From Elusimicrobiaceae bacterium (lineage in GTDB: Bacteria; Elusimicrobiota; Elusimicrobia; Elusimicrobiales; Elusimicrobiaceae), in assembly GCA_017501565.1 (NCBI GenBank), contig JAFVWP010000137.1, forward strand, positions 1,381 through 65,380: 64,000 bases of DNA. The letters are read 5' to 3'. Every line of letters starts with the position of its first letter. The first letter of the stretch is position 1. Shown here piece by piece: positions 36,378 to 58,750 of this stretch. Under the pieces are notes generated by a model. The model was not told the origin of the DNA. It saw nothing but the letters and a program-made list of their open reading frames with translations, and did no database searches. The position numbers and the translations under genes were made by a program.

Positions 36378-37436
36378 TTACAAAAGGGATAAAAAAGTTT
36401 CCGCGCTGATTTTTAGACGTTTTTCATCAAAATTTTCTATCACCTTTCCGCCCCAGGCCCACAGCATATCCAAGTGTGGGGTCGGTACCTGTAAGATTTC
36501 CGCAATGCAGTGAAGCATAGCCAAACCGAAACAAAAATCTTCCGTAAAATAGCGGTTTGCAAAATCCGGCACAAAGCGGTCGGTCCCCTGTTTTTTCATA
36601 GGGGCTTTGATGCCTTGAAAGGCTTGGATAGAGCGAATTTTGTTCGTCAAAGCAGCCGCGTCTTGGCTTTCGTAATAGGTTAAAAGCGGGGGAACAGGGC
36701 TTAATTTTGCCGGATTCGCTCTCATAACTGCCTGAAACTCGGCATCGCACGCCACCAACAGCAAAGAACTTTCTAAATCCCAATCTTCATAAAACAAAAT
36801 TTCTTTTTCATAAGGACGCTGCGAAGAAAAGCGGTGAAACAAAGAGTATAGGCGGCTGGTGTGTAAAATAGGATTGCTGTTGGTTAAACAGGTCTGCAAA
36901 AAATGCGGCAACAGCACTACGGGCGTGGCAAACATTTCTTCCAGCGTTTCTGCTAATGCTTGTCCCGCCGCATGATGCAAGGTAGCCACCGCTAATTCTT
37001 TTTTATATCCCAACAAACAAGCACTACGTCCGTACTCTTTCACACGGGCAATAAAAGGCACCCGTTGAAAAGCAAATAAAGGGTTTTGGTCTCCCAAAAT
37101 TTCATGTGCTAAAAAGAAAAATCCGCTACTGCCCACCACACACCCCACTTGCGTCTGTTTAGACAAATGCGGTTTAATCCGGCGCAAAGCATCGGCGATG
37201 CAATAGCCGGGAAGGCAAAGCAATAGCATATCGGCATTTTTTACGATGGAAGGATCTTGCGAAATATGAAATAAATCTCCCCGCAAAACAGCGCCCCCGG
37301 GCGTATATATTTGCAGTGTTTTTTGCCATTTTTCCGCAGAAGAAGTGAGCAAAGAAACCTGATAGTCTCTATGCGCTAAAAAACCGCCGATGACATGCCC
37401 TAAATGGCCGCCGCCGCAAATGCAAATATGTTTCAT
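36378..37436 (-). CDS. NAD/NADP-dependent opine (octopine/nopaline) dehydrogenase family
   Basis: Rossmann ICGGGHLG; TNSNPILH, FYEDW and RYFTEDFCFGL motifs. Confidence 0.85.
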   Translation of the reverse strand: MKHICICGGGHLGHVIGGFLAHRDYQVSLLTSSAEKWQKTLQIYTPGGAVLRGDLFHISQDPSIVKNADMLLLCLPGYCIADALRRIKPHLSKQTQVGCVVGSSGFFFLAHEILGDQNPLFAFQRVPFIARVKEYGRSACLLGYKKELAVATLHHAAGQALAETLEEMFATPVVLLPHFLQTCLTNSNPILHTSRLYSLFHRFSSQRPYEKEILFYEDWDLESSLLLVACDAEFQAVMRANPAKLSPVPPLLTYYESQDAAALTNKIRSIQAFQGIKAPMKKQGTDRFVPDFANRYFTEDFCFGLAMLHCIAEILQVPTPHLDMLWAWGGKVIENFDEKRLKISAETFLSLL

Positions 37437-37438
37437 GA

Positions 37439-39229
37439 TTATAATGCTTCAATTAGCGCCGCATTGTCGGCTCTGTTTCGGATCGCAATGCGAATATAGT
37501 TCTTTTGCGCAAAGCCTTTTTTAGCGGAACAATCTTTAATAAAAATTTTCCGTTTCAAAAGTTCTTCTGCCAAGGCCGTCGCTGTTTTGGGCGGCAAAAC
37601 TTCGCACAAAAAATAATTCGCTTGCGAAGGATATACCCGCAAATAGGAAATCTTTTTTAGTTGCTGATAAAAAGTCTCCCGCTCTTGCGCAAAGAGCTGA
37701 CAAGCATTTTTATAATCGGCTTCATACTTGTGGTAAATTTGCAAAAAGAACTCGGCAAACGAGTTAATATTCCAAATAGATAACCGACGGCGCAAATCGT
37801 CCATCAACGCTGTATCTGCACTTGCGGCAATCCCTAAACGAAGCCCCGGTACACCATAAGATTTGGAAATACTTTTTAAAATAATCATCTGCGGGTAGCG
37901 GACTAAAATATCGTTTTTCAGCAAAGAGCTTTCCGCTCCTTTTTCCGCAAAATCCACAAAAGACTCATCTAAAACTAAACGGACTTGTTTAGCCCGGCAC
38001 CAATCCAACAAAGTCAACAAATCTTCTTTTCCGATAAAATTGCCGGACGGATTATCCGGATTAATCAGTAAAAGTGAAGATATGGCTTTGTCTTCAAAAT
38101 AAGCCATCACATCTTTTGCTGTATAAGAAAAACCCGGAGTTTGCGGGGTCCATATCACTAAATCTTGTTGTTTTCGGTTGGGGTACTCTTCAAAAGTAGG
38201 ATAAATCACCCCCATTTTTCCCGGCAATAAAGGCAATAGCTCTTTAATAATTTCCGCCGCGCCGTTTCCGACGGCTAAATACGGAGCATAAACATCAAAG
38301 TTTTTTGCCGCCAGCATACCCATTACACCCGCGCCGGAAGGATATTGGCAGAGTAAATCTTCAAAATTACTTTTTATTTCATCGCACATCTTTTGGGGCG
38401 GGAAATAAGGATTAACCAAATAACAAAAATCTTTCAACCCCGAAAAACGCCAATAGCCGCCGAATCTTTTTTGATAGCGTTGCAAAGTATTTTCTTGGGA
38501 GAAAATCATTTCTGCCGTATCCAAATCTTGCATATCGTCTATTTCATACCAACGCTCCCCTTGCAACGTGCGGGCGCGAATTTGGGCATTTTCAAGAGTA
38601 GATAAAACACGCAACACCTGCTCATAAAAGCCGTTATGCCCCAAAGCCTGGCAATAAGCCTCTAAAAAAGGAACATATTGTTTGGCAGAAAATTCTTTGG
38701 AAAATTTATAAATATTGATGGTTTTATAATAAGAATCTTTTTCGGCAAATTTAAAATTATTTTTAGCAATAAAAGACTCTATTCTTCCGTCATCGGAAAT
38801 TTTTACACAAGTGCCGTCATTCCAATTTTCGTACTTATTTACCAGCGCAATCGTGGGATAAGGGTCTTGCAAAATTTTATCCAACACGGCATCTTCAAAA
38901 ATAAGGTCCGACTCTAAGAGTAAAGTATCTTCTTGGGTCAAATATTCTTTGGCCAGCGCCAAAGAATAAATATTATTGGTTTTATCGTATATCGGGTTTT
39001 CTACAAAAACGATGGGTATATCCAACCCCAAACTTTTTACAAAACAGACCAAAGACTCGGCCTTGTACCCCACCACCAAAACAATGCGAGATAAATTCCG
39101 CCCGGCCAACTGCTTTAACATTCTTTCAATCAGCGTAACGCCGTTTACTTTGACCATACATTTGGTGTTATGCGCGGTCAACTCTTTCAATCTCCGGCCC
39201 AGGCCGGCTGCTAAAATAATGGCTTGCAT
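37439..39229 (-). CDS. Fusion of a LicC-like cytidylyltransferase and a class I/II PLP enzyme (HisC/CobD-like)
   Basis: N-terminus: AIILAAGLGRRL...TKCMV, LLESDL, WYEIDD. C-terminus: GNGAAE, NPDNPSG, DESF.DF, KSISKSYGVPGLRLG. Confidence 0.88.
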   Translation of the reverse strand: MQAIILAAGLGRRLKELTAHNTKCMVKVNGVTLIERMLKQLAGRNLSRIVLVVGYKAESLVCFVKSLGLDIPIVFVENPIYDKTNNIYSLALAKEYLTQEDTLLLESDLIFEDAVLDKILQDPYPTIALVNKYENWNDGTCVKISDDGRIESFIAKNNFKFAEKDSYYKTINIYKFSKEFSAKQYVPFLEAYCQALGHNGFYEQVLRVLSTLENAQIRARTLQGERWYEIDDMQDLDTAEMIFSQENTLQRYQKRFGGYWRFSGLKDFCYLVNPYFPPQKMCDEIKSNFEDLLCQYPSGAGVMGMLAAKNFDVYAPYLAVGNGAAEIIKELLPLLPGKMGVIYPTFEEYPNRKQQDLVIWTPQTPGFSYTAKDVMAYFEDKAISSLLLINPDNPSGNFIGKEDLLTLLDWCRAKQVRLVLDESFVDFAEKGAESSLLKNDILVRYPQMIILKSISKSYGVPGLRLGIAASADTALMDDLRRRLSIWNINSFAEFFLQIYHKYEADYKNACQLFAQERETFYQQLKKISYLRVYPSQANYFLCEVLPPKTATALAEELLKRKIFIKDCSAKKGFAQKNYIRIAIRNRADNAALIEAL

Positions 39230-39249: not shown

Positions 39250-40581
39250 TTAGCTATTTTTACCGATATGTTTGTCTTTTAAAAAAGCTCTTTTGGCTGT
39301 TTTTAAAATAATTTCCACATCTAAAAATAAAGATCTGTTTTTGATATACCACAGGTCATACGCCAAGCGCAAAACCGCATCTTGCAGTTTTTCCTGTGGA
39401 ATTTTTTTGTCTTTATCCAAATCTGCCAACACACAATACGTAGGCGGGGCTTTAAAATTAAGCTGGGCCCACCCGGTCAAACCCGGCTGAATAATATTTC
39501 TGATGCGGTGGCAATAAATATGTTCATTTAAAAACTGATATTCCCTATCCCACACCGGGCGCGGGCCGACAATAGAAATATCCCCCCGCAAAATATTGAT
39601 AAGTTGCGGAATTTCATCTAAACGAAAACGCCTTAAAAAAGCTCCCAAACGGGTCACTTCCTGTGTATGGGGTTTCATGGTTCTAAACTTATAAATGCAA
39701 ATGCGGCGGTCATTTCTGCCCATTCTGACTTGCGGGAAAAAAGGTGGCATTTTATCTGTATATTTAATAAGCCCGTAAATACACAACCCCAACGGAAAAA
39801 AGAGCGGAATAAGCACCAAACTAAAGCCAATATCTATGGCACGTTTTACCAACGGAAAAATGGTACGGCTTTGCCGTTGGGAAAGGCTTTGCACCAGCCA
39901 ATGCGGATTTTGCAAAGCTTCTGCAGAACAGCGGTTAAAAAGCCGCTCGTAAAACTGATAATCCGTTTCCAACAAAACGCCTTTGCAAATTAATTTTTCC
40001 AAAATCAGCGGCCACGCTTGGGGTGCTTTTTCCAAGCAATTATGTGCCATAATCATCAGATCCGGCAAAGGGGTATCCGGGCCAAGGGCTTCTTGCGCCG
40101 TAGCACAACGGCCGGCAATAACATATTCTTTATAAAAGGCCAAATCTTTTTCTATGGCTTTTAGGGTTTCGCTTTGGCCGACAAGCAATATTTTTTGCCG
40201 TACAAAAGCATACGAAGCATAGATTTTTCTGGACAAATAAAGATATGAAAAATAAACGACAAAAACGGAAAGCAAAATCAGCTTTGGCGTGGCAACATTA
40301 AAAAAAGACGTTGTATAATAAATACCGAAGCCGGAAGATAACAAAGAAATGGTAAAAGCCACCAGGATATTTTGATAATTCAGGCGTTGCTTTTTAATAG
40401 TGTTTATATCATAAAAAGAGAAAACCCACAAAATGAGTGTTACCAAACAAAACACCGGCATCAGTACTTGTATGGTAGGCACTAAAACAGAAGGGGAAAA
40501 ATCTTGATAACGCAGGATAACAACCCAGGATATAGTGGCAAAGAAAGAGATAAAATCCAGCAGTAAAAATAAAGCTCTCAT
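39250..40581 (-). CDS. Initiating polyprenyl-phosphate sugar-1-phosphate transferase (WcaJ/WbaP-like)
   Basis: Four N-terminal TMs; KRAIDI, YKFRTM, RLDEIPQLINILRGDISIVGPRP, PGLTGWAQ and DLWYIKNRS. Confidence 0.93.
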   Translation of the reverse strand: MRALFLLLDFISFFATISWVVILRYQDFSPSVLVPTIQVLMPVFCLVTLILWVFSFYDINTIKKQRLNYQNILVAFTISLLSSGFGIYYTTSFFNVATPKLILLSVFVVYFSYLYLSRKIYASYAFVRQKILLVGQSETLKAIEKDLAFYKEYVIAGRCATAQEALGPDTPLPDLMIMAHNCLEKAPQAWPLILEKLICKGVLLETDYQFYERLFNRCSAEALQNPHWLVQSLSQRQSRTIFPLVKRAIDIGFSLVLIPLFFPLGLCIYGLIKYTDKMPPFFPQVRMGRNDRRICIYKFRTMKPHTQEVTRLGAFLRRFRLDEIPQLINILRGDISIVGPRPVWDREYQFLNEHIYCHRIRNIIQPGLTGWAQLNFKAPPTYCVLADLDKDKKIPQEKLQDAVLRLAYDLWYIKNRSLFLDVEIILKTAKRAFLKDKHIGKNS

Positions 40582-41516
40582 AACTCCTTCTGCCCCAAAA
40601 TCATTTTTTGCAGACCCTCTTTTAAGCTGACTTTGGCTTCAAACCCGAGTTTGCAGATTTTACCTGTATCTGCCAAAGAGTGCCGCACATCGGCTTCTCT
40701 TTTAGGCGCAAAACGTATTTTAACAGGCTTACCCGTTACCGCTTCTATCTCTTGGATTAAAGCCAATAAAGACGTGCTCTTTGCACTGCCCACATTATAA
40801 ATTTCGCCCGCTTGGCCGTTTTGCATAACCGCCAGGGTAGCGCGGGCCACGTCTTCTACATAAATAAAATCGCGGGTTTGTTGCCCGTCCCAATCCACCA
40901 CGCATTCTTGCCCTTGCAAGGCTTGCTGTATAAATTTGGCTATCACCGCCGCATAGGCACTTTGCGCATTTTGACGCGGGCCAAATACATTAAAGTATCG
41001 CACCGCCATGGCAGACAGGCCGTACGTTTGATGATAGGTTTGGCATAGTTTTTCCCCGGCAAGCTTGCTAAAAGCGTACGGAGACAAACAAGCCGTAGAA
41101 GCATCTTCGGCATAAGGAGCCTGGGGCTTGTTGCCGTAAACCGCGCTGGAAGAAGCCAACACCACTTTCGGCACGTTTTATTCACACGCGGCTTTTAGGA
41201 CATTCAAAGTGCCTTCTACATTGATTTTTTGGGTCAAGGCCGGCTCTTGCACCGATAGCGGCACAGACACCAAGGCCGCTAAATGAAAAATGCCGTCTAT
41301 CCCCGCTAAAGATTTCTTTAAGGAAGGAAAATCTAAAATATCCCCCTTAATAAATGTAATTTTATCTTGAATTGCGGCTAAGTTTTCCGTTTTGCCTGAT
41401 GAAAGATTATCATAGACCACTACCCCATGCCCTTGGCGAAGCAAAAACGCTGCCAAGTGAGAGCCGATAAATCCGGCACCGCCGGTAATTAAAAAAGTGG
41501 AATTATTCTTTTTCAT
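40578..41516 (-). pseudogene. UDP-hexose/HexNAc 4-epimerase (WbpP-like) with an in-frame TAA at 41178-41180
   Basis: GGAGFIGSH and HLAALVSV upstream of the stop; SSSAVYG, YAFSK and RYFNVFGPRQ downstream. The sequence reads TGT GAA TAA AAC GTG CCG in one frame. Confidence 0.9.
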
Positions 41517-43218
41517 CTGTCTGATAATATTGATAGGATTTTTTGTAATAGCCGTATTTAGAGTAAGACATGGCCTTGGGTTGAAAGTGGCCCAGCACCG
41601 CACCTAAAATCTCAATACCCGCCTTGTTTAATTTATCCATTGCCGCCGCCGCCAAATGCGCATGCGTTTGCCCTTGTTTAAGCACAAATACCGCCCGGGG
41701 AATATAACGTCCCCACAATAAAGTATCCGAAACCGGCACAATGGCGGGGCAATCCACCAACACCTGGTCATAGTTTTTCTCTGCCCACGCAATTAAATCT
41801 GCCAAACGAGCCGAGTTCAAAAGCTCCGCCGGGTTGGGCGGGCGTTGACCCGCCGTCATTACAAAAAGATTTTCTACATCTGGCACTGCTTGCACATTAT
41901 AGCTATATTGGGCTTTTTCCCCTTCTTTTACCCAAAGATTACTCAAGCCTTTATCGGGTGACAGGTGAAACGCTTTATGCAGGCGGGAGCGGCGCAAATC
42001 CCCATCTATTAACAATGTCTTCTTTCCGGTTTGTGCCAGAGCAACAGCCAAATTGGTAGAGAGATGGCTTTTTCCTTCACCTTGCAAAGCACTTGTAATC
42101 AAAATGGGAGCATGCGGAGTTTTGGTTAAAGTAAAAGCCAGCATCGTGCGAATATTGCGCACGTTTTCTGCCAATAAGAAATGTCCTTCTTTCGTCATAA
42201 AGGCATATTCCGGCTCGTTCTTTTTAGTCTTTTCTTTAGGAACAAAACCCAAAAAAGCGACCCGGAGCTTTTTTTCCAAATCTTCGGCATTTTGAATGGT
42301 TTGGTCCAGGTAAGACAACACAAAAACAAACCCCAACCCCAGCAAACCGCCAGCCGACATACCGATTAATAAGTTTAAAAGTTTACGGGGCCGCACCGGG
42401 CTTTCGGCGGCGACGGCGGCATCTACTACGCGGATATTGTTGCCCGAAAATTGGCCGGACAACTCTATTTTAATGCTCTGCACCAAGCGTTTGGTTTCCA
42501 AAGCAATTTTATTTTGTACGGCGGCTAATTGCTTGTTTAAAGAAATCACTTCCGGGTGTTTTTGGGTATATTTGGCCGAGTATTGCGCCTGCTTGTTCAG
42601 CAGTTGCGCTTCTTGCAGTTTTAAGTTTTTAATAAAATCGCTATTAACCACTTGCGGCATGGAGTTCAAGAGCTCTTGGTCATCGCGGCTGCGCTCCGTG
42701 CTTTCCAACGCACGGATTACATCGGCCCCCATAGAAATTCTGTTTTTCACATTGTCTGCCACAAAAGTATCGGCTATTTCATTGGCTATTTCTGCCGATA
42801 AATGGCGGTCATACGCAGTCACGCTCACTTGCACCAAACGCGAACGCAACACAGGCACTACTTTTAATGATTTTAAAAGTTTTTTCCACCCGTAAGGATT
42901 TTTAAATTCATCATATTGGTTCAAATCCATTTTATCGTAAACTCTTTGCAACAGGTTACGGCTTTCCAATAGTTTATATTGCGTGCGGTAATAGTCTTCT
43001 GCCGAAGAAAAAGAAGTATAAGGATTGGTTTCTATTTTGCCCGCTTGCTCTTGATTAATCATCAGCAAAGCCGTAGATTGATAAGCCGGGCGCATAAAAG
43101 TATTGACCAATACCGCCCCCAAAAGCCCCAGCAATACAAAAGCCATCAGCACCCAACTATGTTTGAGTAGAATTTCAAAACATTGTGCAAGATTTATTTC
43201 TTCGTTTTTCTTTTCCAT
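41503..43218 (-). CDS. wzc: Wzc-like polysaccharide co-polymerase/BY-kinase
   Basis: Two TMs; Walker A GEGKS, A' LIDGD, B VLVD; C-terminal Tyr cluster YSKYGYYKKSYQYY. Confidence 0.93.
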   Translation of the reverse strand: MEKKNEEINLAQCFEILLKHSWVLMAFVLLGLLGAVLVNTFMRPAYQSTALLMINQEQAGKIETNPYTSFSSAEDYYRTQYKLLESRNLLQRVYDKMDLNQYDEFKNPYGWKKLLKSLKVVPVLRSRLVQVSVTAYDRHLSAEIANEIADTFVADNVKNRISMGADVIRALESTERSRDDQELLNSMPQVVNSDFIKNLKLQEAQLLNKQAQYSAKYTQKHPEVISLNKQLAAVQNKIALETKRLVQSIKIELSGQFSGNNIRVVDAAVAAESPVRPRKLLNLLIGMSAGGLLGLGFVFVLSYLDQTIQNAEDLEKKLRVAFLGFVPKEKTKKNEPEYAFMTKEGHFLLAENVRNIRTMLAFTLTKTPHAPILITSALQGEGKSHLSTNLAVALAQTGKKTLLIDGDLRRSRLHKAFHLSPDKGLSNLWVKEGEKAQYSYNVQAVPDVENLFVMTAGQRPPNPAELLNSARLADLIAWAEKNYDQVLVDCPAIVPVSDTLLWGRYIPRAVFVLKQGQTHAHLAAAAMDKLNKAGIEILGAVLGHFQPKAMSYSKYGYYKKSYQYYQTDEKE

Positions 43219-43227
43219 ATCCAACCC

Positions 43228-43872
43228 TTAAAACATACTTTGCGGCACAAAAACAATATCGCCCGCTTGCAACACCATATCCAACGCTTTATTGCCTTGC
43301 TTGGTAATTTGGGCAACATCTACGTCCAACGCGGTTTGTTGTCCGTTCTCCATACGCAAAACGCGCACCTTGCTGATAGCGGCCAAATCCGTAAATCCGC
43401 CCACGGAAGTAATTGCTTCCAATAAAGTAAGCGGTTTCTCAGGTAGCAAAGCAAGGGCCGCCGGTTTGGCTACCTGACCCAACACATACACATTGTGATT
43501 GCCATACTCTTTAATCAGCAAAGAAACTTGCGGGTCTTTAATATATTCTTCCAATGCAACCGCCAATACTTTTTCCGCTTGGGAAACGGACAGCCCGGCT
43601 ATTTGAATATTGCCTACCAGCGGATAAGTAATGGTACCGCCCGTGGATATGCGCAACGTGCGCAACATATCCTTTTCCATAAATACCTGTATTTCCAGCA
43701 AATCGCCCGGTTGCAGTTTATATTCCGCGCTGGTCTTTAATTGCGTCAAATTGTCGTTTAAAATTGTTTCGGTGGGCACTCCGGCAGGGATTTCCTGGCG
43801 CGGATCAGTGGCGGCACAAGCCCCCAAAAAGCCCAAAAGCAGAAAAAAGGAAAAATATTTGTATAGGTTCAT
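43228..43872 (-). CDS. wza: Short OPX/Wza-like export lipoprotein (Poly_export plus one SLBB)
   Basis: Lipobox LGAC, YKLQPGD, GTITYPLVG, VYVLGQV and LLEAI..GG; ends at GDIVFVPQSMF with no OM helix. Confidence 0.9.
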   Translation of the reverse strand: MNLYKYFSFFLLLGFLGACAATDPRQEIPAGVPTETILNDNLTQLKTSAEYKLQPGDLLEIQVFMEKDMLRTLRISTGGTITYPLVGNIQIAGLSVSQAEKVLAVALEEYIKDPQVSLLIKEYGNHNVYVLGQVAKPAALALLPEKPLTLLEAITSVGGFTDLAAISKVRVLRMENGQQTALDVDVAQITKQGNKALDMVLQAGDIVFVPQSMF

Positions 43873-43906
43873 TTTTATATTTTACTATATATCTTCCTAT
43901 ACAAAA

Positions 43907-45535
43907 CTAATCTAAAGTATTTATAAAAAGGGCAGATAATTCTTTTTCTTTAGGGTATTTTTTTAAGTATTTTTCAGCCAATGCGTGTGCTTGTTGGCGG
44001 TATTGTTTTTGTTGGGCAAGCGATATTTGGTTATCCAAACTTTTATGATAAAGTGAAAGCCCTAATTCCAACGCATAACGCGGAGACGGATAATAAGAAA
44101 GAACTTTTTGTTGATAGGCAATCTTTTGCTCAAATTTAAACCCCTTACCCAAGCGCCCCAACTGCCACGCAATCGTTTTGCACACCGGGACGTATAAACA
44201 AACCGCTAACAACAATCCCATAGCCGCTAAAACAAGCGGACGCACAGACTTCCTTTGGCCTTCTTCGCGCCAGAAAGTTTCCCCGCATAAAAGACCCGAT
44301 AAGATAAAAAAGAATACGCCACAAGCGGGAATATAAAAGTGAAAATCCACCATCGTCGCACACACAAAACCGGTTAAACCGCAAAAAATGCCCCCCATCA
44401 ATAATGCCTTGTGGCGGGGAAGAACAAAAAGACGTTTCAAAAGCCTTAAAATCCCCATTAGCAGTAAGAGCAGTAAAGGCACAGCGCCCACAAAACCCAC
44501 GCCGAGCAACAACTCTAATCCGTCGCTATGCAAACGCGCCACATATAGGTGCAGGGGTTTATCCATATAAACAGGAAGTACCACCGGCAAACTGCCTACG
44601 CCAAAACCAAAAAGGGGACGCTCTTTAAAAGCTTTTCCGGCCGCCTGATAGAGCTGCACACGGGTATCTGCCGAAAAGGACGAATTTCTTTTGGCAAAGG
44701 TTTGAATGGCGTTTTCGGCCTGAAGCCCGCCTATCAACAGCACTCCAAAAAATAACACAATCCCCAACACCGCACCTATTTTCTGCCAAGTCTTTTTAAG
44801 TAGTAAACAAACCGCTAAAACAGAAAAGCAAAACCCTGATACCCAAAAGGCCAACAACACCCCTCTGGAACGGCTAAACACCGCACTAAAGCAAAGCAGT
44901 AGCGACAAAAGCAACCAGACACTTTGTTTAGCATAAAAATCGGCCCGGCGGTTTTGCAAGGCATATTGGCGGCGCTGTGTTAAAAAACTCCCCCACAAAG
45001 CCAAAGCCGTAAAACCGCCCAAAAATAAAAAGATACCGCCGTTATTTCGGTTCAAAAAGGGTCCAACGCCGTCTTTAAGCCCGCTAAAAAATTTTAAATA
45101 TCCCCCGGGCCAAACCATGTGCAGCAGTGCCACCGCCCCGCAAATGCCACACAATCCCAGCAAAAAAAGCCGGGTTTCTTTCAGATTGCGGCACAAGCAG
45201 GCCGACAATACAAAAACGCTCCACCACAGCACAAATAAACCGGCATGCTCCAGCCCAAACAAAGGCATTACGCTAGAAGGATAAAAAGGCGGATTTTCCA
45301 ATAATGTAGTGGGAAAACACGTCTGCAACAGGGTATATAAGATAAGAAAGGCAAAGAAAAAAGAGAGTATTTTACCGACCGGTGAAAAATAAATTTTCCG
45401 TTGGCAAAAGTAGCTCACAAACAAGATTGAAAACAACACCTGATACGTACTTAAAGTCCAGGCTTGCGTACCGCCAAAAGCAAACACCAGAAAGGAAAAT
45501 AAAAACAAGAAAAAACTTTTATAAAACAGGCTCAT
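43907..45535 (-). CDS. O-antigen ligase/oligosaccharyltransferase-like membrane protein (Wzy_C)
   Basis: Many TMs; GPFLNRN, SRSRG, FGFGVGS and LHSDGLE motifs. The start position is uncertain. Confidence 0.75.
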   Translation of the reverse strand: MSLFYKSFFLFLFSFLVFAFGGTQAWTLSTYQVLFSILFVSYFCQRKIYFSPVGKILSFFFAFLILYTLLQTCFPTTLLENPPFYPSSVMPLFGLEHAGLFVLWWSVFVLSACLCRNLKETRLFLLGLCGICGAVALLHMVWPGGYLKFFSGLKDGVGPFLNRNNGGIFLFLGGFTALALWGSFLTQRRQYALQNRRADFYAKQSVWLLLSLLLCFSAVFSRSRGVLLAFWVSGFCFSVLAVCLLLKKTWQKIGAVLGIVLFFGVLLIGGLQAENAIQTFAKRNSSFSADTRVQLYQAAGKAFKERPLFGFGVGSLPVVLPVYMDKPLHLYVARLHSDGLELLLGVGFVGAVPLLLLLLMGILRLLKRLFVLPRHKALLMGGIFCGLTGFVCATMVDFHFYIPACGVFFFILSGLLCGETFWREEGQRKSVRPLVLAAMGLLLAVCLYVPVCKTIAWQLGRLGKGFKFEQKIAYQQKVLSYYPSPRYALELGLSLYHKSLDNQISLAQQKQYRQQAHALAEKYLKKYPKEKELSALFINTLD

Positions 45536-45574
45536 ACCTTTCATTCTATAAAATTTGATATATTGGAATAAGTT

Positions 45575-46039
45575 ATGAAAATATGTTTTGTCTGCCAAGC
45601 CAACATTTGCCGAAGTTTTGTAGCGCAACAATTGCTCCAACACCTTTTAACGCAAAATAAAAAGCCGAATATAGAGATTATTTCCCGCGGGATTTATACT
45701 TCACCCGCTTATGCGGTGCCGGATAAAATCAAAAATTTTTTGGCCCAAAAACAAATTTTGCCACAAGCTCACACACCTGTATTGCTCTCTAAGCAAGATT
45801 TGGCCCAAAGCGATTTGGTATTAGTCATGACGCAAGAACAATGGGATTTTGTATTTAATCAAGCCCCGCAATTTACCGACAAATATCACTTATTGGCTGA
45901 ATATGCCCTGGGGCAAGAGCAAGACATAGAAGACCCCATTTCTTTGACAGGCAAAGCGTTTGACCGGGTCATGACCCAATTAGAAAAGGCCGTCTTGGAA
46001 GTTTACCGAAAAATTACCCGTCCCGATACCGCCCTATAA
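45575..46039 (+). CDS. wzb: Low-molecular-weight protein tyrosine phosphatase (Wzb-like)
   Basis: CQANICRS (CX5R) and DIEDP. Confidence 0.9.
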   Translation: MKICFVCQANICRSFVAQQLLQHLLTQNKKPNIEIISRGIYTSPAYAVPDKIKNFLAQKQILPQAHTPVLLSKQDLAQSDLVLVMTQEQWDFVFNQAPQFTDKYHLLAEYALGQEQDIEDPISLTGKAFDRVMTQLEKAVLEVYRKITRPDTAL

Positions 46040-46936
46040 GCGCTCTGTCGCCGCATCAAAAGCAATGACAAAATGACGTTCCCTTTTTTCGGGTGGGGGC
46101 ACTTGCATATAGTCTTTTCCGTAAATAGAGCTTAAATAAATTTTGGGTTGCTGGGGCAAAACTACTTCTACCCCTTCAAACAGCCCCTTCTTACCGGGCA
46201 AATAAATATCTTTGGAAAGGACATTATTAAAATATCTGCCGCAAGCAATGGTCATCAGATGGCTTTTGCGGCCCGACATCATTTTATCGGCCCAATTACA
46301 CCAGGTCCGGTGCGGAATGACCGACAAACCTTTGCCAAACATTTTGCGAATAAAAAAGGCCGATTTTGTTTTGCGGCTTTGGCTCATAAAAAGAGCCATT
46401 TCCGCGCTGGGGTATTGCGCGTAAAAAACAGACACCGCTATTTGGCATAACAAATTACAAAACGCGCCTTTTATCCAACGTAAAAATTTATTTTCAGGCG
46501 CATAGTCTAACGGAAAAATATCTATATAAATGCCTTTAGGAAAAGAAGTTTGCGTATCGGATATTTCCAAAAACAAAGTGCCTTTTTTATAGATTTTGGT
46601 GAAATTATTTTTAGATTCTTTGCCGGTATTAGGGGCTGTAAACTCGTATTTATCGCCTAATTCCCGCTCAAAAATAGTAAAAAATTTAGGCAAATCTTTT
46701 CGCAAAACCAACAGGTCCAAATCGTCGTCCCAAGGGATAAAGCCCCCATGGCGCACCGCCCCCAAACAAGAGCCAAAGCCCAACATATACGTTATATGAT
46801 GTTTTTCAAAAACACGCATCAAGTCTTGCAACATTTCAAGCAATGCTTTTTTCAGTTGTGCTTTTTCTTCTTCCGTTAAAGCATGCAATTGTGTGCTTTT
46901 GCGTGCCAAAACATTCATATCGGCCGTTGTGCCCAT
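46034..46936 (-). CDS. licD: LicD-family CDP-alcohol phosphotransferase
   Basis: GSCLGAVRHGGFIPWDDDLD, IDIFPLD and YL..IYG.DYMQVPP. Confidence 0.92.
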   Translation of the reverse strand: MGTTADMNVLARKSTQLHALTEEEKAQLKKALLEMLQDLMRVFEKHHITYMLGFGSCLGAVRHGGFIPWDDDLDLLVLRKDLPKFFTIFERELGDKYEFTAPNTGKESKNNFTKIYKKGTLFLEISDTQTSFPKGIYIDIFPLDYAPENKFLRWIKGAFCNLLCQIAVSVFYAQYPSAEMALFMSQSRKTKSAFFIRKMFGKGLSVIPHRTWCNWADKMMSGRKSHLMTIACGRYFNNVLSKDIYLPGKKGLFEGVEVVLPQQPKIYLSSIYGKDYMQVPPPEKRERHFVIAFDAATERL

Positions 46937-46949
46937 ATTTTTCCCCTTT

Positions 46950-48155
46950 CTATTTTCCGTCAAAAAATCTTTGGTATATTTTTTTAACCAGCGTAACACA
47001 AAAAGGCTTTATTCCCAAAAGTTCGCGCAATAAAGCGTTCAAAGGCTCTTTTCGCCATCGCACAAAAAATTCGGACCGCTTAGCATGCGGTATGCAAGAG
47101 CGGAAAATAGCCGGATTATGCAACATAGCCTGGCGGGCGTCTATCTCCATCGTTTTTATCCCGCTTTTACGCACATATTCGGCCCCTTTAGGCGTATTTA
47201 CCCCCAAGAAAGAAACTCCTTCGTGTTTATTCTTAGGAGTTAAAATATCCGGCCACTCGCCCCACAAATCCCCCAGCGTTACATCGGCCATGCGTTTTTC
47301 CAAATCTTTAGACAGACACAAGTGGCAACTCGGCCGCAGAAAAAGCCCCGCCAAATATCCGCGCAGAAAAAGATTGTGAAACACAAAAGCAGGCGTCATG
47401 GAAAAGAAAGAAAAAATTTTCTCAGCCAAGGTTTGTTTTTGGCTGTGCGCTACCCATTGCCTGCCGACACGAAAACCTAAAAAATACCGGCTCCAACCGC
47501 CGTCTTTTTTACGAAAATTAATCTCTTGCGGAAAAGTGGACGGGAAATTTTCCCGCAAAAATCTTTGCCACACGCCCGTAGAGGCCACACCCAAGCAAAT
47601 AAGTTGTGCCGTTAACAAATGCGCGTAATCTTTATTTAAATAATTACGCAGACCGGCTATTTGGCAAGGAGTGCCCACAAACAGCACACGCCGCCCTTGC
47701 TCCAAAAATTCGTGCGCCTGCCGATAGCTTTGACCAATATCGCTTTGCACATATTTGGAACGGCGCAATTTATCCAAGTCTGACTCGTTATCCACCCATT
47801 GATGAAACACGCGGTATCTTTCATCAAAACAGGCCCCAAACACTACCCCTTTTTCCTTTAATATTTCTTCTGCCAGGGCCGAAAAAACACCCCCCGAAGA
47901 ACTTTTGAGTAAAATTTCCATTTGGCCATGTCGGGCCGCATACACTTGCTGTTGGACAAACATATCGGGCTTGCGCAAAGAAGGGCAGACCGAACGGCAA
48001 AGCCCGCAACCGATGCACCGGGCATGATCTATATGCGGATACAAAAAGCCTTCTCCGTCCGCTTCCATAGAAATACACCCATGCGTGCAAATATTTACGC
48101 ACGCCTGGCAACCGCTGCATTTGTTTTTATCTACTACCGGGATCATCTGTTCCAT
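46950..48155 (-). CDS. FrhB-like (F420 hydrogenase beta-like) oxidoreductase with two 4Fe-4S motifs
   Basis: CSGCQACVNIC, CIGCGLCRSVCP, SSSGG, SKYVQS, GTPCQ, RPSCHLC and DVTLGDLWG. Confidence 0.88.
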   Translation of the reverse strand: MEQMIPVVDKNKCSGCQACVNICTHGCISMEADGEGFLYPHIDHARCIGCGLCRSVCPSLRKPDMFVQQQVYAARHGQMEILLKSSSGGVFSALAEEILKEKGVVFGACFDERYRVFHQWVDNESDLDKLRRSKYVQSDIGQSYRQAHEFLEQGRRVLFVGTPCQIAGLRNYLNKDYAHLLTAQLICLGVASTGVWQRFLRENFPSTFPQEINFRKKDGGWSRYFLGFRVGRQWVAHSQKQTLAEKIFSFFSMTPAFVFHNLFLRGYLAGLFLRPSCHLCLSKDLEKRMADVTLGDLWGEWPDILTPKNKHEGVSFLGVNTPKGAEYVRKSGIKTMEIDARQAMLHNPAIFRSCIPHAKRSEFFVRWRKEPLNALLRELLGIKPFCVTLVKKIYQRFFDGK

Positions 48156-49648
48156 ATTTTTCTAAAAGGAGCTTTCAATAAATTTTTTTCGTATTCGTTC
48201 ATTGCCAAAAACCACATCGCAGCACCATACAACAAGCTAAAGCCGACAATTTCCGCTCCCAAGCTCCAAATACAAAGCGGCCACGTCAGCACATTTTTTA
48301 ACAGCATCATCAGGCCCACCGGCAAAAGCATACAAAGCCACAAACGCACGATTTGCGCGAAAAAAGACTTTATGCAAAAACCAAGCCTAGCATAATAAAT
48401 ATTTAAAATAATTCCTTGCCCCAACAGCAAGCACCCCGCCGTAACGGCCGCACAGGCCATTGCGCCGTAGTGTTTAGCCAAAGGGACCGCCACCAACACA
48501 TTCAGCACCGCAATCAAGGCAAACACTACCGCCCGAAAAGCGTGTTTATTTCTGGCTTGTAAAATAAAAATGCCGGTATTTTGAATTAAAGGTAAAATCA
48601 GAGCCGCCATCAAAAGTAATGTATAAGCATAAGCCGGCAAAAAGTTTTCTCCCGCCCACAGCCGTAAAAAGGATTTACCGAACAAAGCAAATCCCCAAAA
48701 AAACAACATCACCACATAACACTGCAAACGGCCCACTTTAAGAAAAATCTGATTCATTTCCGTCATAGAGCCTTTGGCCGCCAAGGCCGACAAATGCGGT
48801 AAAAACACACCGCTCATATTGGCAGACACATTCATATAAGAAAGGCACAATTGCACAGCCACGGCATATACGGCCACCACCATTGTACCGCTGATCGCAC
48901 CTAAAATCAATTGGCCGCTTTTCCAATAAATCTGGTCCATAACCGCATTTAAAAAAATGAAAAAAGAAAAGAATAAAATTTCTTTTACAAAGGGCCTATC
49001 CCAACCATGTAAACGAAAACGTACTTTTAATTGAAACAAACAATAATACACATTGGCTAAGAATAAGGCAAAATTGCAAAGTGTCTGCACGCACACCAAA
49101 GCAATGATATTGGCCCGAAAATGCAAAACCACAAACACCAAAACCGGCTGTAAAATGATATTCAAAAGAGTCGCACATCGTAAAAAAATAAATTTTTCAT
49201 GCGATTGGATAATCGCCGAAAAAATATGCCCCGGTATCACAAACGCCACATTTATAAGCATAATGGCATAGACATATTTGGCCGTCAGCATATCGGCCGA
49301 AGAAAGCGTTTTGGCATAAAAAGGAACAAGTACTTGCCAAAGCCCCGCACCGACCAATAAAATCAAAACGGAAATGCCTCCATAAATACGCAACATCGTC
49401 GCCAACAGGTTTTCTTGTTTTTCGCGGTCCTGTTGTGCCAAAAAGCGGGAATAATAACGAATGGTGGTATTGGAAAGGCCAAAGTCCATAATAGCGATAT
49501 ATGCAATCATAGAACCGACCAATTGGTACAAGCCATATTGCTGTTGGCTTAAAAAAGCCAGCAACATTGGCACATACAACAAGCCGATCAGGCCGTTGAT
49601 CCCCATGGTCAAATAAGAAAGCAAAACGCCTATTTTTCGCTGGTTCAT
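48143..49648 (-). CDS. wzx: Wzx flippase
   Basis: About 12-14 TMs; YGLYQLVGS..Y..IMDFGL start motif. Confidence 0.88.
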   Translation of the reverse strand: MNQRKIGVLLSYLTMGINGLIGLLYVPMLLAFLSQQQYGLYQLVGSMIAYIAIMDFGLSNTTIRYYSRFLAQQDREKQENLLATMLRIYGGISVLILLVGAGLWQVLVPFYAKTLSSADMLTAKYVYAIMLINVAFVIPGHIFSAIIQSHEKFIFLRCATLLNIILQPVLVFVVLHFRANIIALVCVQTLCNFALFLANVYYCLFQLKVRFRLHGWDRPFVKEILFFSFFIFLNAVMDQIYWKSGQLILGAISGTMVVAVYAVAVQLCLSYMNVSANMSGVFLPHLSALAAKGSMTEMNQIFLKVGRLQCYVVMLFFWGFALFGKSFLRLWAGENFLPAYAYTLLLMAALILPLIQNTGIFILQARNKHAFRAVVFALIAVLNVLVAVPLAKHYGAMACAAVTAGCLLLGQGIILNIYYARLGFCIKSFFAQIVRLWLCMLLPVGLMMLLKNVLTWPLCIWSLGAEIVGFSLLYGAAMWFLAMNEYEKNLLKAPFRKIWNR

Positions 49649-49654
49649 ACCCTT

Positions 49655-50755
49655 TTAAGATAAATATTGCTTTAACAACTGCGCAATTTTTTCACAAGCG
49701 TGTCCGTCTCCGTAAGGATTGACGGACGTGCTCATTCGGCGTAAAAGGGACGGCTCAGACAGCAACTCTTTACACGCCAGGTATATCTTTTCTTGTGAAG
49801 TTCCTGCCAAGCGCAAAATACCGCTGTTTACCCCTTCCGGGCGTTCGGTGGTATCCCTTAACACTAAAACAGGTTTAGCCAAGGCACAGGCTTCTTCTTG
49901 TATGCCGCCGCTATCGGTTAAAATAAACTCACTGCGCGACATAATATTATGAAAATCAACCACCCCCAAAGGTGCGGTCAGGCAAATCCGCTCTTGGCCC
50001 GTCAAATATTGTTGGGCCAAAGCCGTTACTTGCGGGTTCGGGTGAACAGGATAAAGCACTTTTACATTTTCAAATTCGTCCGCTATTTGCCGCACCGCCC
50101 GAAAAATATGCGTCATTTTTTTTCCCCAATTTTCGCGGCGGTGTGCTGTCAGTAAAATTAAACGGCTTCCTTGCGCCCAGGTTAAAAGCGGGTGAGAATA
50201 GTTCGGCAAAAGAGTCGTATTCAAAGCATCTACGATCGTGTTACCGGTTACAAAAATATGTTCGGCTTTTTTTCCTTCTCTTAATAAATTTTCTTTTGCA
50301 ACGGAAGTAGGCGCAAAATGCAAAGCAGCCGTCAGGGATACGGCTTGGCGGTTGAACTCTTCCGGAAAGGGAGCGTAAATATCACCGGTGCGAAGCCCCG
50401 CTTCCACATGGCCCACCGGTATTTGCAAGTAATAACAGGCCAAAGCCGCGGCAAAAGAAGTGGTGGTATCTCCGTGCACCAACACCATATCGGGCTTTTC
50501 CCGCAAAAGAACCGGCGGAAAAGCATGAAGCACCGCCGCAGTAATATCAAAAAGTGTTTGGGCATTTTTCATAATGGACAAATCATAATCCGCCACTACC
50601 GAAAAAGCCTGCAAAACCTGGTCTAACATTTGGCGGTGTTGGCCTGTTACGCATACTTTTACGTCGCACCAAGACAGGGTCTTGAGCACTTTTACCAACG
50701 GACACATTTTAATAGCTTCCGGGCGTGTACCGAAAACCAACATGATTTTTTTCAT
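49655..50755 (-). CDS. wecB: UDP-GlcNAc 2-epimerase (non-hydrolysing)
   Basis: FGTRPEAIKM, TGQHRQML, VHGDT, HVEAGLR, PEEFNR and TDSGGIQEE. Confidence 0.96.
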   Translation of the reverse strand: MKKIMLVFGTRPEAIKMCPLVKVLKTLSWCDVKVCVTGQHRQMLDQVLQAFSVVADYDLSIMKNAQTLFDITAAVLHAFPPVLLREKPDMVLVHGDTTTSFAAALACYYLQIPVGHVEAGLRTGDIYAPFPEEFNRQAVSLTAALHFAPTSVAKENLLREGKKAEHIFVTGNTIVDALNTTLLPNYSHPLLTWAQGSRLILLTAHRRENWGKKMTHIFRAVRQIADEFENVKVLYPVHPNPQVTALAQQYLTGQERICLTAPLGVVDFHNIMSRSEFILTDSGGIQEEACALAKPVLVLRDTTERPEGVNSGILRLAGTSQEKIYLACKELLSEPSLLRRMSTSVNPYGDGHACEKIAQLLKQYLS

Positions 50756-50783
50756 TTAAATGGCTCCCTGTTGCTTAAAAATC

Positions 50784-55522: not shown

Positions 55523-55524
55523 TT

Positions 55525-58361: not shown

Positions 58362-58414
58362 TGCTTTTTTTCGGTTTCAAAACGCGTTCTATTGGCCCAT
58401 TTTTTCAACGCTAT

Positions 58415-58690
58415 TTAATGTTGCAACTTGTTAAAAAGTTCTTTAATCTCGGCAATTTTTTCTTGGGCAGCATTTTTATTGTCAAAAGAATCCGCCACAC
58501 ATTTTTCCAAGTGGGTAGATAAAATATTTTTTTCTACGGATATAATTGCCGAGCGTACCGCTTTTAATTGAATCAGGATTTCGGGACAATACCGCTGCTC
58601 ATCTATCATTTTTTTAATACCTTCCAGCTGTCCGATCACTCTGTTTAAGCGGGGAAGTTCGGCCTTATGGCAAAGGTGTTTGTTTTCCAT
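58415..58690 (-). CDS. csoR: CsoR-family metal-sensing repressor with a Cu(I)-type fingerprint
   Basis: RLNRVIGQLEGIKKM; Y34-C35, H60, C64 and E81. Confidence 0.92.
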   Translation of the reverse strand: MENKHLCHKAELPRLNRVIGQLEGIKKMIDEQRYCPEILIQLKAVRSAIISVEKNILSTHLEKCVADSFDNKNAAQEKIAEIKELFNKLQH

Positions 58691-58709
58691 AATTTTCTCT
58701 CATTTCTTC

Positions 58710-58740
58710 TATTTCCCCGGAGATATTATCCGGGGAAATA
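58710..58740. repeat. 12-bp stem hairpin between the metallothionein-like ORF and csoR
   Basis: TATTTCCCCGGA-N7-TCCGGGGAAATA; no U-tract follows it on the minus strand. Confidence 0.85.
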
Positions 58741-58750
58741 TATTCTCATA

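Follow-up and report, generated by a model that had tools for sequence, protein, structure and literature searches.

An NT-PLP fusion protein (a LicC-like nucleotidyltransferase joined to a PLP enzyme), an opine-dehydrogenase-family protein (ODH) and a LicD-family phosphotransferase are the products of three genes that occur as a set in hundreds of bacteria from gut and rumen. Judging from the sequences, the three proteins are probably a tailoring module that adds an N-(1-carboxyalkyl)-aminoalkyl phosphate, namely a phosphodiester-linked opine, to a lipid-linked repeat unit. We propose that this route is a new form of CDP-alcohol glycan tailoring; full-text literature searches found no biochemical description of it. 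The set was analyzed in a 64,000-nucleotide stretch of DNA from an Elusimicrobiaceae bacterium (the window), where the following features were assigned. Those other than the ODH, fusion and LicD genes come from Pfam/NCBIfam scans.

36378-37436, minus strand: ODH, 352 aa, Octopine_DH PF02317
37439-38479, minus strand: CobD/HisC-like PLP domain, fusion residues ~251-596, Aminotran_1_2
38480-39229, minus strand: LicC-like nucleotidyltransferase (NT) domain, fusion residues 1 to ~250, NTP_transf_3/NTP_transferase
39250-40581, minus strand: Bac_transf (initiating transferase)
40578-41603, minus strand: epimerase, split by an in-frame TAA
41503-43224, minus strand: Wzc-like kinase
43228-43872, minus strand: Wza-like exporter
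43907-45643, minus strand: Wzy_C, first copy
46034-46936 (ORF to 46999), minus strand: LicD-family phosphotransferase, PF04991
46950-48155, minus strand: FrhB-like FeS protein
48143-49648, minus strand: flippase
49655-50755, minus strand: WecB
50784-51995, minus strand: pyruvyl transferase
51979-53214, minus strand: Wzy_C, second copy
53211-56349, minus strand: glycosyltransferases

The fusion gene and the ODH gene end a minus-strand polysaccharide locus that extends from 36378 to about 56349. The initial annotation had described a LicC-like/PLP fusion and an opine dehydrogenase as the final genes of the locus, and the ORFs lie where it placed them and carry matching domains. It had also placed a LicD inside the same locus, which is borne out by the PF04991 match and by the ATG at 46936, the start that it gave. 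In the window ORFs, ODH is downstream of the fusion with a spacing of 2 nt, and LicD is 7 kb upstream of ODH within one operon-like locus. If a cassette is defined by the three functions being adjacent or in one locus, the window contains one. The locus is of the Wzx/Wzy type with Wza and Wzc, that is, capsule-type, and we propose that its genes at 39250-56349 supply the acceptor for the predicted decoration. The in-frame stop in the epimerase gene raises the possibility that the locus has lost some of its function in the assembly.

The fusion protein (596 aa, 37439-39229, minus strand) matches NTP_transf_3/NTP_transferase at residues 1-184 and Aminotran_1_2 at residues 365-596 in the Pfam scan. 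The NT matches (PF12804, 43.2 bits; PF00483, 38.8 bits) both exceed the cut-off, and the motif LAAGLGRRL provides the N-terminal G-x-G-x-R-L of LicC-type enzymes. Solved structures that the NT domain resembles include LicC (1JYK, E 4e-13) and also the PntC-AEPT fusion (6PD1, E 1e-11). We propose that it is a CTP:amino-alcohol-phosphate cytidylyltransferase; the CDP-alcohol transferases encoded downstream (LicD, TagF-like, CDP-OH_P_transf) lead us to infer that it is specific for CTP and a phospho-alcohol. The PLP domain is of fold type I, and its Schiff-base lysine sits in a conserved SISKSYGVPGLRLG, aligned with the lysine of CobD 1LC5 and of 6OUX. Its best NCBIfam models are CobD TIGR01140 (177 bits, cut-off 290.55) and HisC TIGR01141 (144 bits, cut-off 276.55). 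Since both scores are under the equivalog cut-offs, they do not distinguish a decarboxylase from an aminotransferase. Its context is polysaccharide and not cobamide; it is outside the CobD equivalog, yet may have a CobD- or SMUL_1544-like activity. The top structural matches are 6OUX, a 'threonine phosphate decarboxylase-like enzyme' (E 6e-38), and CobD 1LC5 (E 3e-34), and HisC structures are also among the matches. From the identical product name, we take 6OUX to be SMUL_1544. The model scores and the PDB ranking lean towards a decarboxylase, without being decisive. We propose that the PLP domain is a phosphoserine decarboxylase giving ethanolamine phosphate, or alternatively a DHAP aminotransferase giving serinol phosphate. 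The CobD-type PLP chemistry assumed in the initial annotation agrees with the closest solved relatives, which are phosphoamino-acid decarboxylases.

ODH matches Octopine_DH PF02317 with E 9e-32 (110.6 bits against a cut-off of 30), in addition to an ApbA-type Rossmann domain, and this is the single occurrence of Octopine_DH in the whole assembly. A GGGxxG motif (GGGHLG) lies at residues 8-13. ODH also matches Pecten octopine dehydrogenase (3C7A, E 7.5e-30); H192 aligns with the Pecten catalytic His, and N-R295-Y-F-T-E299-D300 aligns with NRYLTED. A Rossmann motif is common to opine dehydrogenases, as is the His-Asp dyad that defines the family, and their products are R-configured (PMC10787698). 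The window protein has the PF02317 helical domain, the GxGxxG motif, the His-Asp dyad and the Arg to which the carboxylate of the 2-oxo acid binds. The catalytic residues and the Rossmann motif are invariant in 15 relatives (alignment A1), and the catalytic His and the NRYxTED residues are kept in loci L026 and L096 as well. The identification of this gene as a member of the opine dehydrogenase family holds, with the catalytic His and NRYxTED retained. The N-domain also matches the Rossmann models of ketopantoate reductase and glycerol-3-P dehydrogenase. R125, R195 and K266 are clade-specific invariants of cassette ODHs, at positions where Pecten has T, I and A, and they may have a role with an anionic phosphate substrate. 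We propose that ODH acts as an NAD(P)H-dependent N-(1-carboxyalkyl) synthase on an amino-alcohol phosphate, probably in its CDP form.

The window LicD matches PF04991 with E 3e-42 (145.5 bits against a cut-off of 22.6) and carries the acidic, DxD-type motifs DDDLDL and DIFPLD. It is the single LicD of the assembly, lies inside the polysaccharide locus and is 25-38% identical to cassette LicDs; this low identity and the distance of 7 kb to ODH count against the module. LicD is proposed to move the substituted amino-alcohol phosphate from the CDP donor to the repeat unit. A complex prediction of the window ODH with the window LicD scored 0.00, which is below the mark and speaks neither for nor against binding.

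The association of these genes was surveyed in the best 80 ODH loci from species genomes, a co-occurrence survey on which the initial annotation had beforehand staked its reading. In 74 of these loci, the fusion immediately preceded ODH in the same orientation (median gap 24 nt), and this association exceeds chance by far. LicD was mostly near: it lay directly 3' of ODH in 44/80 loci and within 3.5 kb in 21 more. Ten loci without a tblastn LicD match were inspected, of which two had a divergent LicD and four had a TagF-like CDP-alcohol phosphotransferase. The initial annotation would have taken a lack of co-occurrence as a refutation; what was seen is a conserved cassette with the gene order fusion, ODH, LicD. 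The 80 loci span Prevotella, Bacteroides, Phocaeicola, Alloprevotella, Fibrobacter, Fluviicola, Odoribacter and others. Of the 120 nearest ODH clusters, 21 consist of ODH-LicD fusion proteins of ~598 aa. Among 300 sampled Bacteroidales species, each of the six close ODHs adjoins a full-length fusion, and both of the more distant ODHs found in the window's phylum adjoin a fusion; the cassette is much commoner in Bacteroidales than in the window organism's own lineage. ODH relatives were found in over 500 stretches from species-representative genomes, and the fusion protein of the Phocaeicola vulgatus type is indexed in 824 metagenome-collection blocks. One MAG with an ODH-LicD fusion counts against the module, as the NT-PLP fusion was not found there with the query used. 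In two loci (L087, L088), a fusion without ODH adjoins a TagF-like or LicD transferase. This suggests that the NT-PLP unit alone yields a usable CDP donor and that ODH is an added tailoring step.

The cassette often serves protein O-glycosylation and not capsule, a point that the initial annotation had missed, as it had the greater frequency in Bacteroidales. In P. vulgatus ATCC 8482, it lies within the metG-linked protein O-glycosylation (LFG) locus. In four loci (L089, L090, L091 and L097), an OCD/mu-crystallin protein (PF02423) fills the slot between the fusion and LicD. L026 and L097 are orthologous LFG loci (identities: MetG 91%, fusion 76%, LicD 83%, GT4 80%) that differ in one gene, ODH versus OCD/mu-crystallin. 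By these sequence comparisons, this is a non-orthologous displacement of ODH by an unrelated imine-reducing family. None of the 80 ODH loci has an OCD-like gene. OCD-LicD fusions were absent from the 120 best OCD-like clusters, a set whose length filter would remove proteins of about 580 aa. The verrucomicrobial L096, with ODH and an OCD-like gene in tandem, is a misfit with simple equivalence, and L095 has an OCD-like gene without a fusion. The nearest models of the replacing protein are AlaDH, Pyr2C reductase and SbnB. An opine-forming step fits the slot because enzymes of either family reduce C=N bonds that arise from 2-oxo acids. To our knowledge, opine dehydrogenase is the sole activity that occurs in both families. 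The tauropine and strombine dehydrogenases of sponges are opine dehydrogenases of the OCD/mu-crystallin family, and taurine closely resembles ethanolamine phosphate.

Other routes and the supply of precursors were searched for in the assembly, which is 1.47 Mb and 91.8% complete. Choline kinase PF01633 had no match in it, nor did PEP mutase PF13714, a model that matches 11 of 14 control genomes. No choline kinase, choline transporter or phosphonate enzyme is encoded among the locus genes. Consequently, neither a Lic-1 phosphocholine system (LicA and a transporter with LicC and LicD) nor a Pnt phosphonate-tailoring system (Ppm beside or fused to the cytidylyltransferase) is seen, in agreement with the absence of both routes claimed earlier. 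The serC_1 model gave a weak match in the assembly, and a rescan gave a pair of serA-like and serC_3-like genes, both under the cut-off; this pair is a likely source of phosphoserine.

In the proposed pathway, the PLP domain would draw on central metabolism to form an amino-alcohol phosphate, most likely ethanolamine phosphate by decarboxylation of L-phosphoserine, and the LicC-like domain would convert it with CTP to a CDP-amino alcohol. ODH would then join the free amine to a 2-oxo acid, most likely pyruvate, and reduce the imine with NAD(P)H to give a CDP-N-(1-carboxyalkyl) derivative. Finally, LicD would put the phospho-alcohol on a sugar hydroxyl at the cytoplasmic face, before flipping and polymerisation. 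PLP, NT, ODH, LicD is the order that needs the fewest assumptions, in view of the NT-PLP fusion, the ODH-LicD fusions of many relatives and the arrangement of the genes; it is possible that the ODH step follows the LicD transfer. Ethanolamine, serinol or aminopropanol are candidates for the amino alcohol, and pyruvate or another 2-oxo acid for the second substrate. The interpretation offered in the initial annotation passed in all its computationally testable parts, namely co-occurrence, ODH-LicD fusions, the lack of choline and phosphonate routes, PLP relatives, ODH residues and the replacement family.

The PLP domain could instead be a HisC- or Cj1437-type aminotransferase, in which case DHAP would give serinol phosphate, then its CDP form and, via ODH and LicD, N-carboxyalkyl-serinol phosphate. 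DHAP is universally available, the natural substrate of HisC is an amino-alcohol phosphate, HisC structures are among the PDB matches, and the HisC model is 33 bits under CobD at 144 bits. Furthermore, Cj1437 catalyses exactly the amination of DHAP to serinol-P (PMC11800397). We nevertheless consider this unlikely, as the top model and the two closest solved relatives are decarboxylases, the serA-serC-like pair suggests that phosphoserine is available, and the sole known glycan opine-phosphate has an ethanolamine base. A route without any opine is quite improbable. In it, a CDP-polyol, for example CDP-glycerol, would be oxidised to a ketone by the ODH or OCD-like protein and then transaminated by the PLP domain to CDP-serinol for LicD, in parallel to the oxidoreductase/aminotransferase pairs of amino-sugar nucleotide synthesis. 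The pairing of a dehydrogenase with an aminotransferase is frequent in glycan loci, and the ketopantoate reductase and glycerol-3-P dehydrogenase matches of the ODH N-domain would suit an oxidation. However, the helical domain specific to ODHs, the catalytic His and NRYxTED are conserved, the replacing OCD/mu-crystallin family is known for C-N chemistry only, NT is fused to PLP and not separated from it by an oxidation step, and the fusions of L087 and L088 have neither partner.

It is also conceivable that the ODH or OCD-like protein is an amino-acid dehydrogenase that acts before the PLP step, for example on 3-phosphohydroxypyruvate and ammonia to give phosphoserine, so that the substituent would be plain phosphoethanolamine. 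Ammonia-using alanine dehydrogenases do exist in the OCD/mu-crystallin family and the serC match of the genome is under the cut-off, but we know of no ODH-family member that uses ammonia. Both the ODH-LicD fusions and the gene order put the enzyme beside the transfer step, and fusions in other loci work without ODH, which makes this reading very improbable. Finally, the locus might install a decoration of a classical type, either phosphocholine (LicC/LicD) or aminoethylphosphonate (PntC), ODH being unrelated and making, for instance, an amide-linked opine amino acid as on Proteus O13. Phosphocholine transfer is the best-known role of LicD, and the NT domain matches both LicC 1JYK and PntC 6PD1. 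This seems hardly credible given the tight linkage of ODH to the fusion and LicD across hundreds of genomes, a locus without an amide ligase, and an assembly, 91.8% complete, in which neither choline kinase nor PEP mutase was matched.

Carboxyethyl-amine (opine-type) substituents belong to decades-old polysaccharide chemistry, and a description of their biosynthesis was not found in full-text searches. The fusion-ODH-LicD cassette is a concrete, testable candidate route to them. A broader proposition, to which we give an even chance, is that opine phosphates are a widespread, hitherto undescribed class of glycan substituents, installed by the portable cassette on capsules and on the general protein O-glycan of such abundant gut Bacteroidales as P. 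vulgatus, with the opine step recruited twice from unrelated families (ODH and OCD/mu-crystallin); this could explain carboxyethyl-amines of the Proteus O14 type. The P. vulgatus cassette locus builds a glycan that is placed on many non-cytoplasmic proteins. If the prediction is true, the secondary amine, carboxylate and phosphate of such a substituent would alter surface charge, and antibody or lectin recognition, phage adsorption and possibly commensal immune modulation could be affected. Phospho- or CDP-linked amines would be a new substrate class for opine dehydrogenases. In addition, the displacement can guide the annotation of thousands of glycan-locus genes named 'aminotransferase', 'octopine dehydrogenase' or 'ornithine cyclodeaminase'. 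A 2025 review on Bacteroidota O-glycosylation lists no opine-phosphate modification, and the O-glycan of Prevotella intermedia has a hexitol phosphate with no amine.

The cassette resembles the Lic-1 system (LicA, LicB, LicC, LicD) of Streptococcus pneumoniae and Haemophilus in the LicC-like activation of a phospho-alcohol with CTP and in the phosphodiester transfer to a surface glycan by a LicD-family enzyme. Unlike Lic-1, it has no choline kinase or transporter; the fused PLP domain would make the phospho-alcohol in the cell, and an extra NAD(P)H enzyme would modify the amine. PntC-AEPT of Treponema denticola (Tde1415, 6PD1; PMC6697681) likewise begins with a LicC-like cytidylyltransferase, whose substrate is made by the PLP enzyme fused C-terminally to it. 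PntC-AEPT serves cell-surface tailoring with a CMP/CDP-activated 2-aminoethyl product, and the like is predicted for the fusion. PntC-AEPT has a class V AEP transaminase and needs PEP mutase, which was not found in the assembly, whereas the window fusion has a class I/II CobD/HisC-like PLP domain and the cassette adds an opine-type step.

CobD, SMUL_1544 (6OUX), Cj1436 and Cj1437 share their fold and PLP lysine with the PLP domain, and they yield amino-alcohol phosphates (aminopropanol-P, ethanolamine-P, serinol-P) from phosphoamino acids or DHAP. In C. jejuni, Cj1436 gives ethanolamine-P and Cj1437 gives serinol-P (PMC11800397). These two serve capsule decoration, but their products are joined by amides and then dephosphorylated, not transferred as phosphodiesters. 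The PLP domain differs from CobD in scoring under the equivalog cut-off, in having no cobamide context and in its fusion to a cytidylyltransferase. The O-antigen of Proteus mirabilis O14 bears N-[(R)-1-carboxyethyl]ethanolamine phosphate, R-Cet-EtnP (PMC5560731 S4 table; PMC9630907). The O14 gene-cluster paper and its supplements report no opine dehydrogenase, LicD, cytidylyltransferase or decarboxylase; O14 is known by its chemistry. R-Cet-EtnP is exactly the kind of substituent predicted for the cassette, and its R configuration agrees with the usual stereochemistry of ODHs. In enterobacteria, EtnP is usually added in the periplasm from phosphatidylethanolamine, so the O14 route may differ from the cassette. 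ODH shares the two-domain fold, GxGxxG, the catalytic His/Asp and the carboxylate-binding Arg with Pecten octopine dehydrogenase (3C7A), Arthrobacter CENDH (1BG6) and CntM of staphylopine-type metallophores. These known enzymes use free amino acids or metallophore intermediates, whereas the cassette ODH clade is tied to glycan loci and fused to LicD. Opine synthesis has arisen among OCD/mu-crystallin enzymes as well as among ODHs, as the sponge enzymes illustrate, and the displacement of one family by the other in the cassette parallels this.

The window carries a Wzx/Wzy-type polysaccharide locus on its minus strand, running from about 56349 to 36378. Its genes encode, in order, three glycosyltransferases, a Wzy_C protein, a pyruvyl transferase, WecB, a flippase, an FrhB-like iron-sulfur protein, LicD, a second Wzy_C protein, a Wza-like exporter, a Wzc-like chain-length regulator/kinase, an NAD-dependent epimerase and a Bac_transf initiating transferase. 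The final two genes encode a fusion of a LicC-like nucleotidyltransferase (NT) with a CobD/HisC-like PLP enzyme, and a protein of the opine dehydrogenase family (ODH). Together with LicD they form a cassette, which belongs to a capsule-type locus with Wza and Wzc. All the cassette genes of the initial annotation were recovered where it had placed them:

46034-46936 (or 46999), minus strand: LicD, the single LicD of the assembly
37439-39229, minus strand: NT-PLP fusion protein, 596 aa
36378-37436, minus strand: ODH, 352 aa

The same locus encodes the FrhB/FdhB-like 4Fe-4S protein at 46950-48155(-) and the polysaccharide pyruvyl transferase at 50784-51995(-); because of the latter, the polymer is probably pyruvylated too. 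The epimerase/dehydratase ORF at 40578-41603(-) is divided in two by one in-frame TAA (41178-41180; ...AACE*NVPKVVLASS...), so that the gene is either a pseudogene created by a nonsense mutation or, the genome being MAG-like, wrongly assembled. Elsewhere in the window, an outer-membrane beta-barrel gene (BBP2_2) lies at 24364-25491(-). Together with the Wza-like exporter, the small genome and an AlaRS nearest to Bacillota clusters, it suggests a diderm lineage of the Bacillota. G+C drops from about 0.45 to 0.28-0.38 in 58000-64000, and the ORFs there had no Pfam match except an AAA_14/DUF4143 ATPase at 60335-61486. This segment may be foreign or mobile.

The NT domain of the fusion spans residues 1 to about 250, is LicC-like with the motif LAAGLGRRL, and matched LicC (1JYK) and a PntC-AEPT fusion (6PD1) in comparison with the PDB. 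From about residue 251 the protein is a fold-type I PLP domain that keeps the Schiff-base lysine. Its top models were CobD (177 bits) and HisC (144 bits), both under curated cut-offs, by which it is not an equivalog of either. The closest solved structures were 6OUX, a 'threonine phosphate decarboxylase-like enzyme' (E 6e-38), and Salmonella CobD, 1LC5 (E 3e-34). The molecule name of 6OUX is, word for word, the product name of SMUL_1544, a gene governing norcobamide synthesis. Motif, model scores and PDB matches thus bear out the annotated fusion of a LicC-like cytidylyltransferase with a HisC/CobD-like enzyme. The PLP domain might act like CobD, SMUL_1544 (which we take to be a phosphoserine decarboxylase) or Cj1436, or else like Cj1437.

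The ODH gene starts 2 nt past the stop codon of the fusion. Its product scored 110.6 bits with Octopine_DH, matched Pecten octopine dehydrogenase (E 7.5e-30), and carries GGGxxG, the catalytic His (H192) and the NRYFTED motif (R295, E299, D300). It has all the sequence hallmarks of the opine dehydrogenase family, and the score, the Pecten match and the catalytic residues confirm the original assignment. R125, R195 and K266 are invariant in this ODH clade, and the aligned residues of the Pecten enzyme are T, I and A. Speculatively, these three residues could bind the amine substrate through its phosphate group.

Co-occurrence of the three families had been set beforehand as a test, and they do occur together. 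In a scan of one genome per species, more than 500 stretches encoded an ODH relative; the best 80 loci, analysed by tblastn, came from Prevotella, Bacteroides, Phocaeicola, Alloprevotella, Paraprevotella, Odoribacter, Muribaculum, Salinivirgaceae, Fluviicola and Fibrobacter. The fusion lay directly upstream of ODH on the same strand in 74 of these 80 (median gap 24 nt), was adjacent but convergent in two and elsewhere in the locus in one. Of the three loci with no fusion match, two had the fusion at another place in the genome or cut by contig ends; in the last, a MAG, it was not found with this query. LicD was directly downstream of ODH on the same strand in 44/80, and within 3.5 kb in 21 more. 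Ten of the ODH loci that gave no tblastn match to LicD were inspected, and Pfam revealed a divergent LicD in two of these ten and a TagF-like CDP-glycerol-type phosphotransferase in four. An even sample of 300 Bacteroidales species gave six close ODHs, each abutting a full-length fusion, and three distant family members (31-32% identity), none of which abutted one. ODH is rare in the phylum of the window (3/401 genomes) and was found in none of 77 other sampled species of its genus; the two other ODHs of the phylum (34-37% identity) also abut a fusion. Beyond near-identical metagenome contigs, the nearest relatives of the cassette are from Bacteroidales (50-61% identity), and therefore horizontal acquisition by the window's organism is likely.

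Some relatives are defective. The PLP domain is in two broken ORFs at 8111-9962 of L001, an ODH-LicD fusion locus, and single in-frame stops interrupt one ODH (TGA; G520:C32:66742-67749) and one fusion (TAG; G645:C16:112194-114005). These defects fit sequencing errors, or the decay or phase-like variation to which tailoring genes of this kind are frequently subject.

Proteins of about 598 aa that join an N-terminal ODH to a C-terminal LicD were found in 21 of the 120 nearest ODH clusters, and one such gene directly follows an NT-PLP gene beside a flippase and metG. Fusion of PLP to NT, frequent fusion of ODH to LicD and the gene order NT-PLP, ODH, LicD together point to the step order PLP, NT, ODH, LicD.

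The fusion does not always precede an ODH. The Bacteroidales sample contained 11 full-length fusions, six of them with ODH as the next gene. In three (L089, L090, L091) the next gene encoded a protein of 303-316 aa of the ornithine cyclodeaminase/mu-crystallin (OCD-like) family (E 1e-26 to 2e-33), with LicD one or two genes beyond. A LicD-like gene follows directly in L088. A second fusion copy of Phocaeicola vulgatus (L087 7839-10825, contig C35), which shares 59% identity with the first, precedes a gene for a TagF-like CDP-glycerol-type phosphotransferase, with no ODH or OCD-like gene alongside; this would be a plain, non-alkylated version of the decoration, or a phospho-alcohol polymer. On our reading, the fusion can function without an ODH. 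OCD-like genes between fusion and LicD are:

L089, 10860-11771
L090, 10890-11834
L091, 10902-11852
L097, 6001-6942

In L097 the fusion comes after metG and wzx, and behind it lie, in turn, the OCD-like gene, LicD, glycosyltransferases and YfhO. Against the P. vulgatus ATCC 8482 locus (L026; fusion at 8190-9995, ODH at 9992-11092), identity is 91% for MetG, 67% for Wzx, 76% for the fusion, 83% for LicD and 80% for GT4, whereas the slot between fusion and LicD holds ODH in L026 and the OCD-like protein in L097, with undetectable similarity. No OCD-like gene was present in any of the 80 best ODH loci. From these comparisons, the pattern is one of non-orthologous displacement in a cassette whose other genes are orthologous. 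The models that come closest to the OCD-like protein all describe C=N redox enzymes: alanine dehydrogenase, pyrroline/piperideine-2-carboxylate reductase and SbnB. The OCD/mu-crystallin family includes opine enzymes such as sponge tauropine and strombine dehydrogenases, and opine dehydrogenase is, to our knowledge, the sole activity known in both families. Of the new arguments that the reductase step would be an opine-type reductive N-alkylation, this displacement is the strongest. There are two exceptions. In a Verrucomicrobia MAG (L096 3069-7754), ODH and an OCD-like gene stand in tandem between fusion and LicD, so that there the two cannot simply be substitutes; two different oxo-acid adducts may be made, or the locus may be a recombination intermediate. 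In Parabacteroides (L095), an OCD-like gene occurs without the fusion.

In L092 (1922-4489) and L093 (6616-9503), NT and PLP are separate genes with 33-35% identity to the domains of the fusion, and a CDP-alcohol phosphatidyltransferase gene (PF01066) comes after them. In some Bacteroidales the amino-alcohol-phosphate logic may therefore serve a membrane-lipid head group as well.

In P. vulgatus ATCC 8482 (L026 1-21083) and the near-identical metagenomic L002 (fusion proteins 98% identical), the cassette lies between metG-wzx and conserved glycosyltransferases, with yfhO, mtnN and luxS as neighbours. The metG-wzx...GT-yfhO layout is that of the published LFG locus, a general protein O-glycosylation system (PMC8698959; PMC12871550; bioRxiv 10.64898/2026.07.27.740950). 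Since the cassette is inside this locus, the P. vulgatus protein O-glycan is predicted to carry the substituent. Among the known Bacteroidota O-glycans covered by a 2025 review, none is listed with an amine, ethanolamine or opine modification.

In the proposed route, phosphoserine would be decarboxylated to ethanolamine phosphate; alternative starting points would be DHAP, giving serinol-P by amination, or phosphothreonine, giving aminopropanol-P by decarboxylation. The product would be cytidylylated with CTP. Its primary amine would then condense with a 2-oxo acid, by analogy pyruvate, the adduct would be reduced by NAD(P)H, and LicD would move the result onto an undecaprenyl-linked repeat unit. 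A serA-like and serC-like gene pair is present in the assembly, each under cut-off, and therefore phosphoserine is probably available. Proteus mirabilis O14 carries the only glycan substituent known to be of this type, N-[(R)-1-carboxyethyl]ethanolamine phosphate. R-configured products are usual for ODHs (PMC10787698). All available computational tests favour the opine-type phosphodiester reading. We regard the general scheme, opine-phosphate tailoring by fusion, ODH and LicD, as moderately probable, its chemistry being unproven; that the substituent is carboxyethyl-ethanolamine phosphate specifically is a tentative and rather doubtful suggestion.

What appears new is that these genes are combined, that ODH is predicted to act on a phospho- or CDP-linked amine, that two imine-reducing families have apparently both been recruited, and that there is a putative link to Bacteroidales protein O-glycosylation. 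The absence of a choline kinase, transporter or phosphonate gene, first noticed in the sequence, held: no kinase, transporter or phosphonate enzyme is among the genes of the polysaccharide locus, and models for PEP mutase and choline kinase had no match in the 91.8% complete assembly (1.47 Mb, 141 contigs), which has one LicD and one Octopine_DH. Lic-1 phosphocholine and Pnt phosphonate tailoring share with the window module a cytidylyl-activated small head group and LicD-type transfer. By their defining tests, however, the module falls outside both, because it has no LicA, unlike Lic-1, and no Ppm, unlike Pnt.
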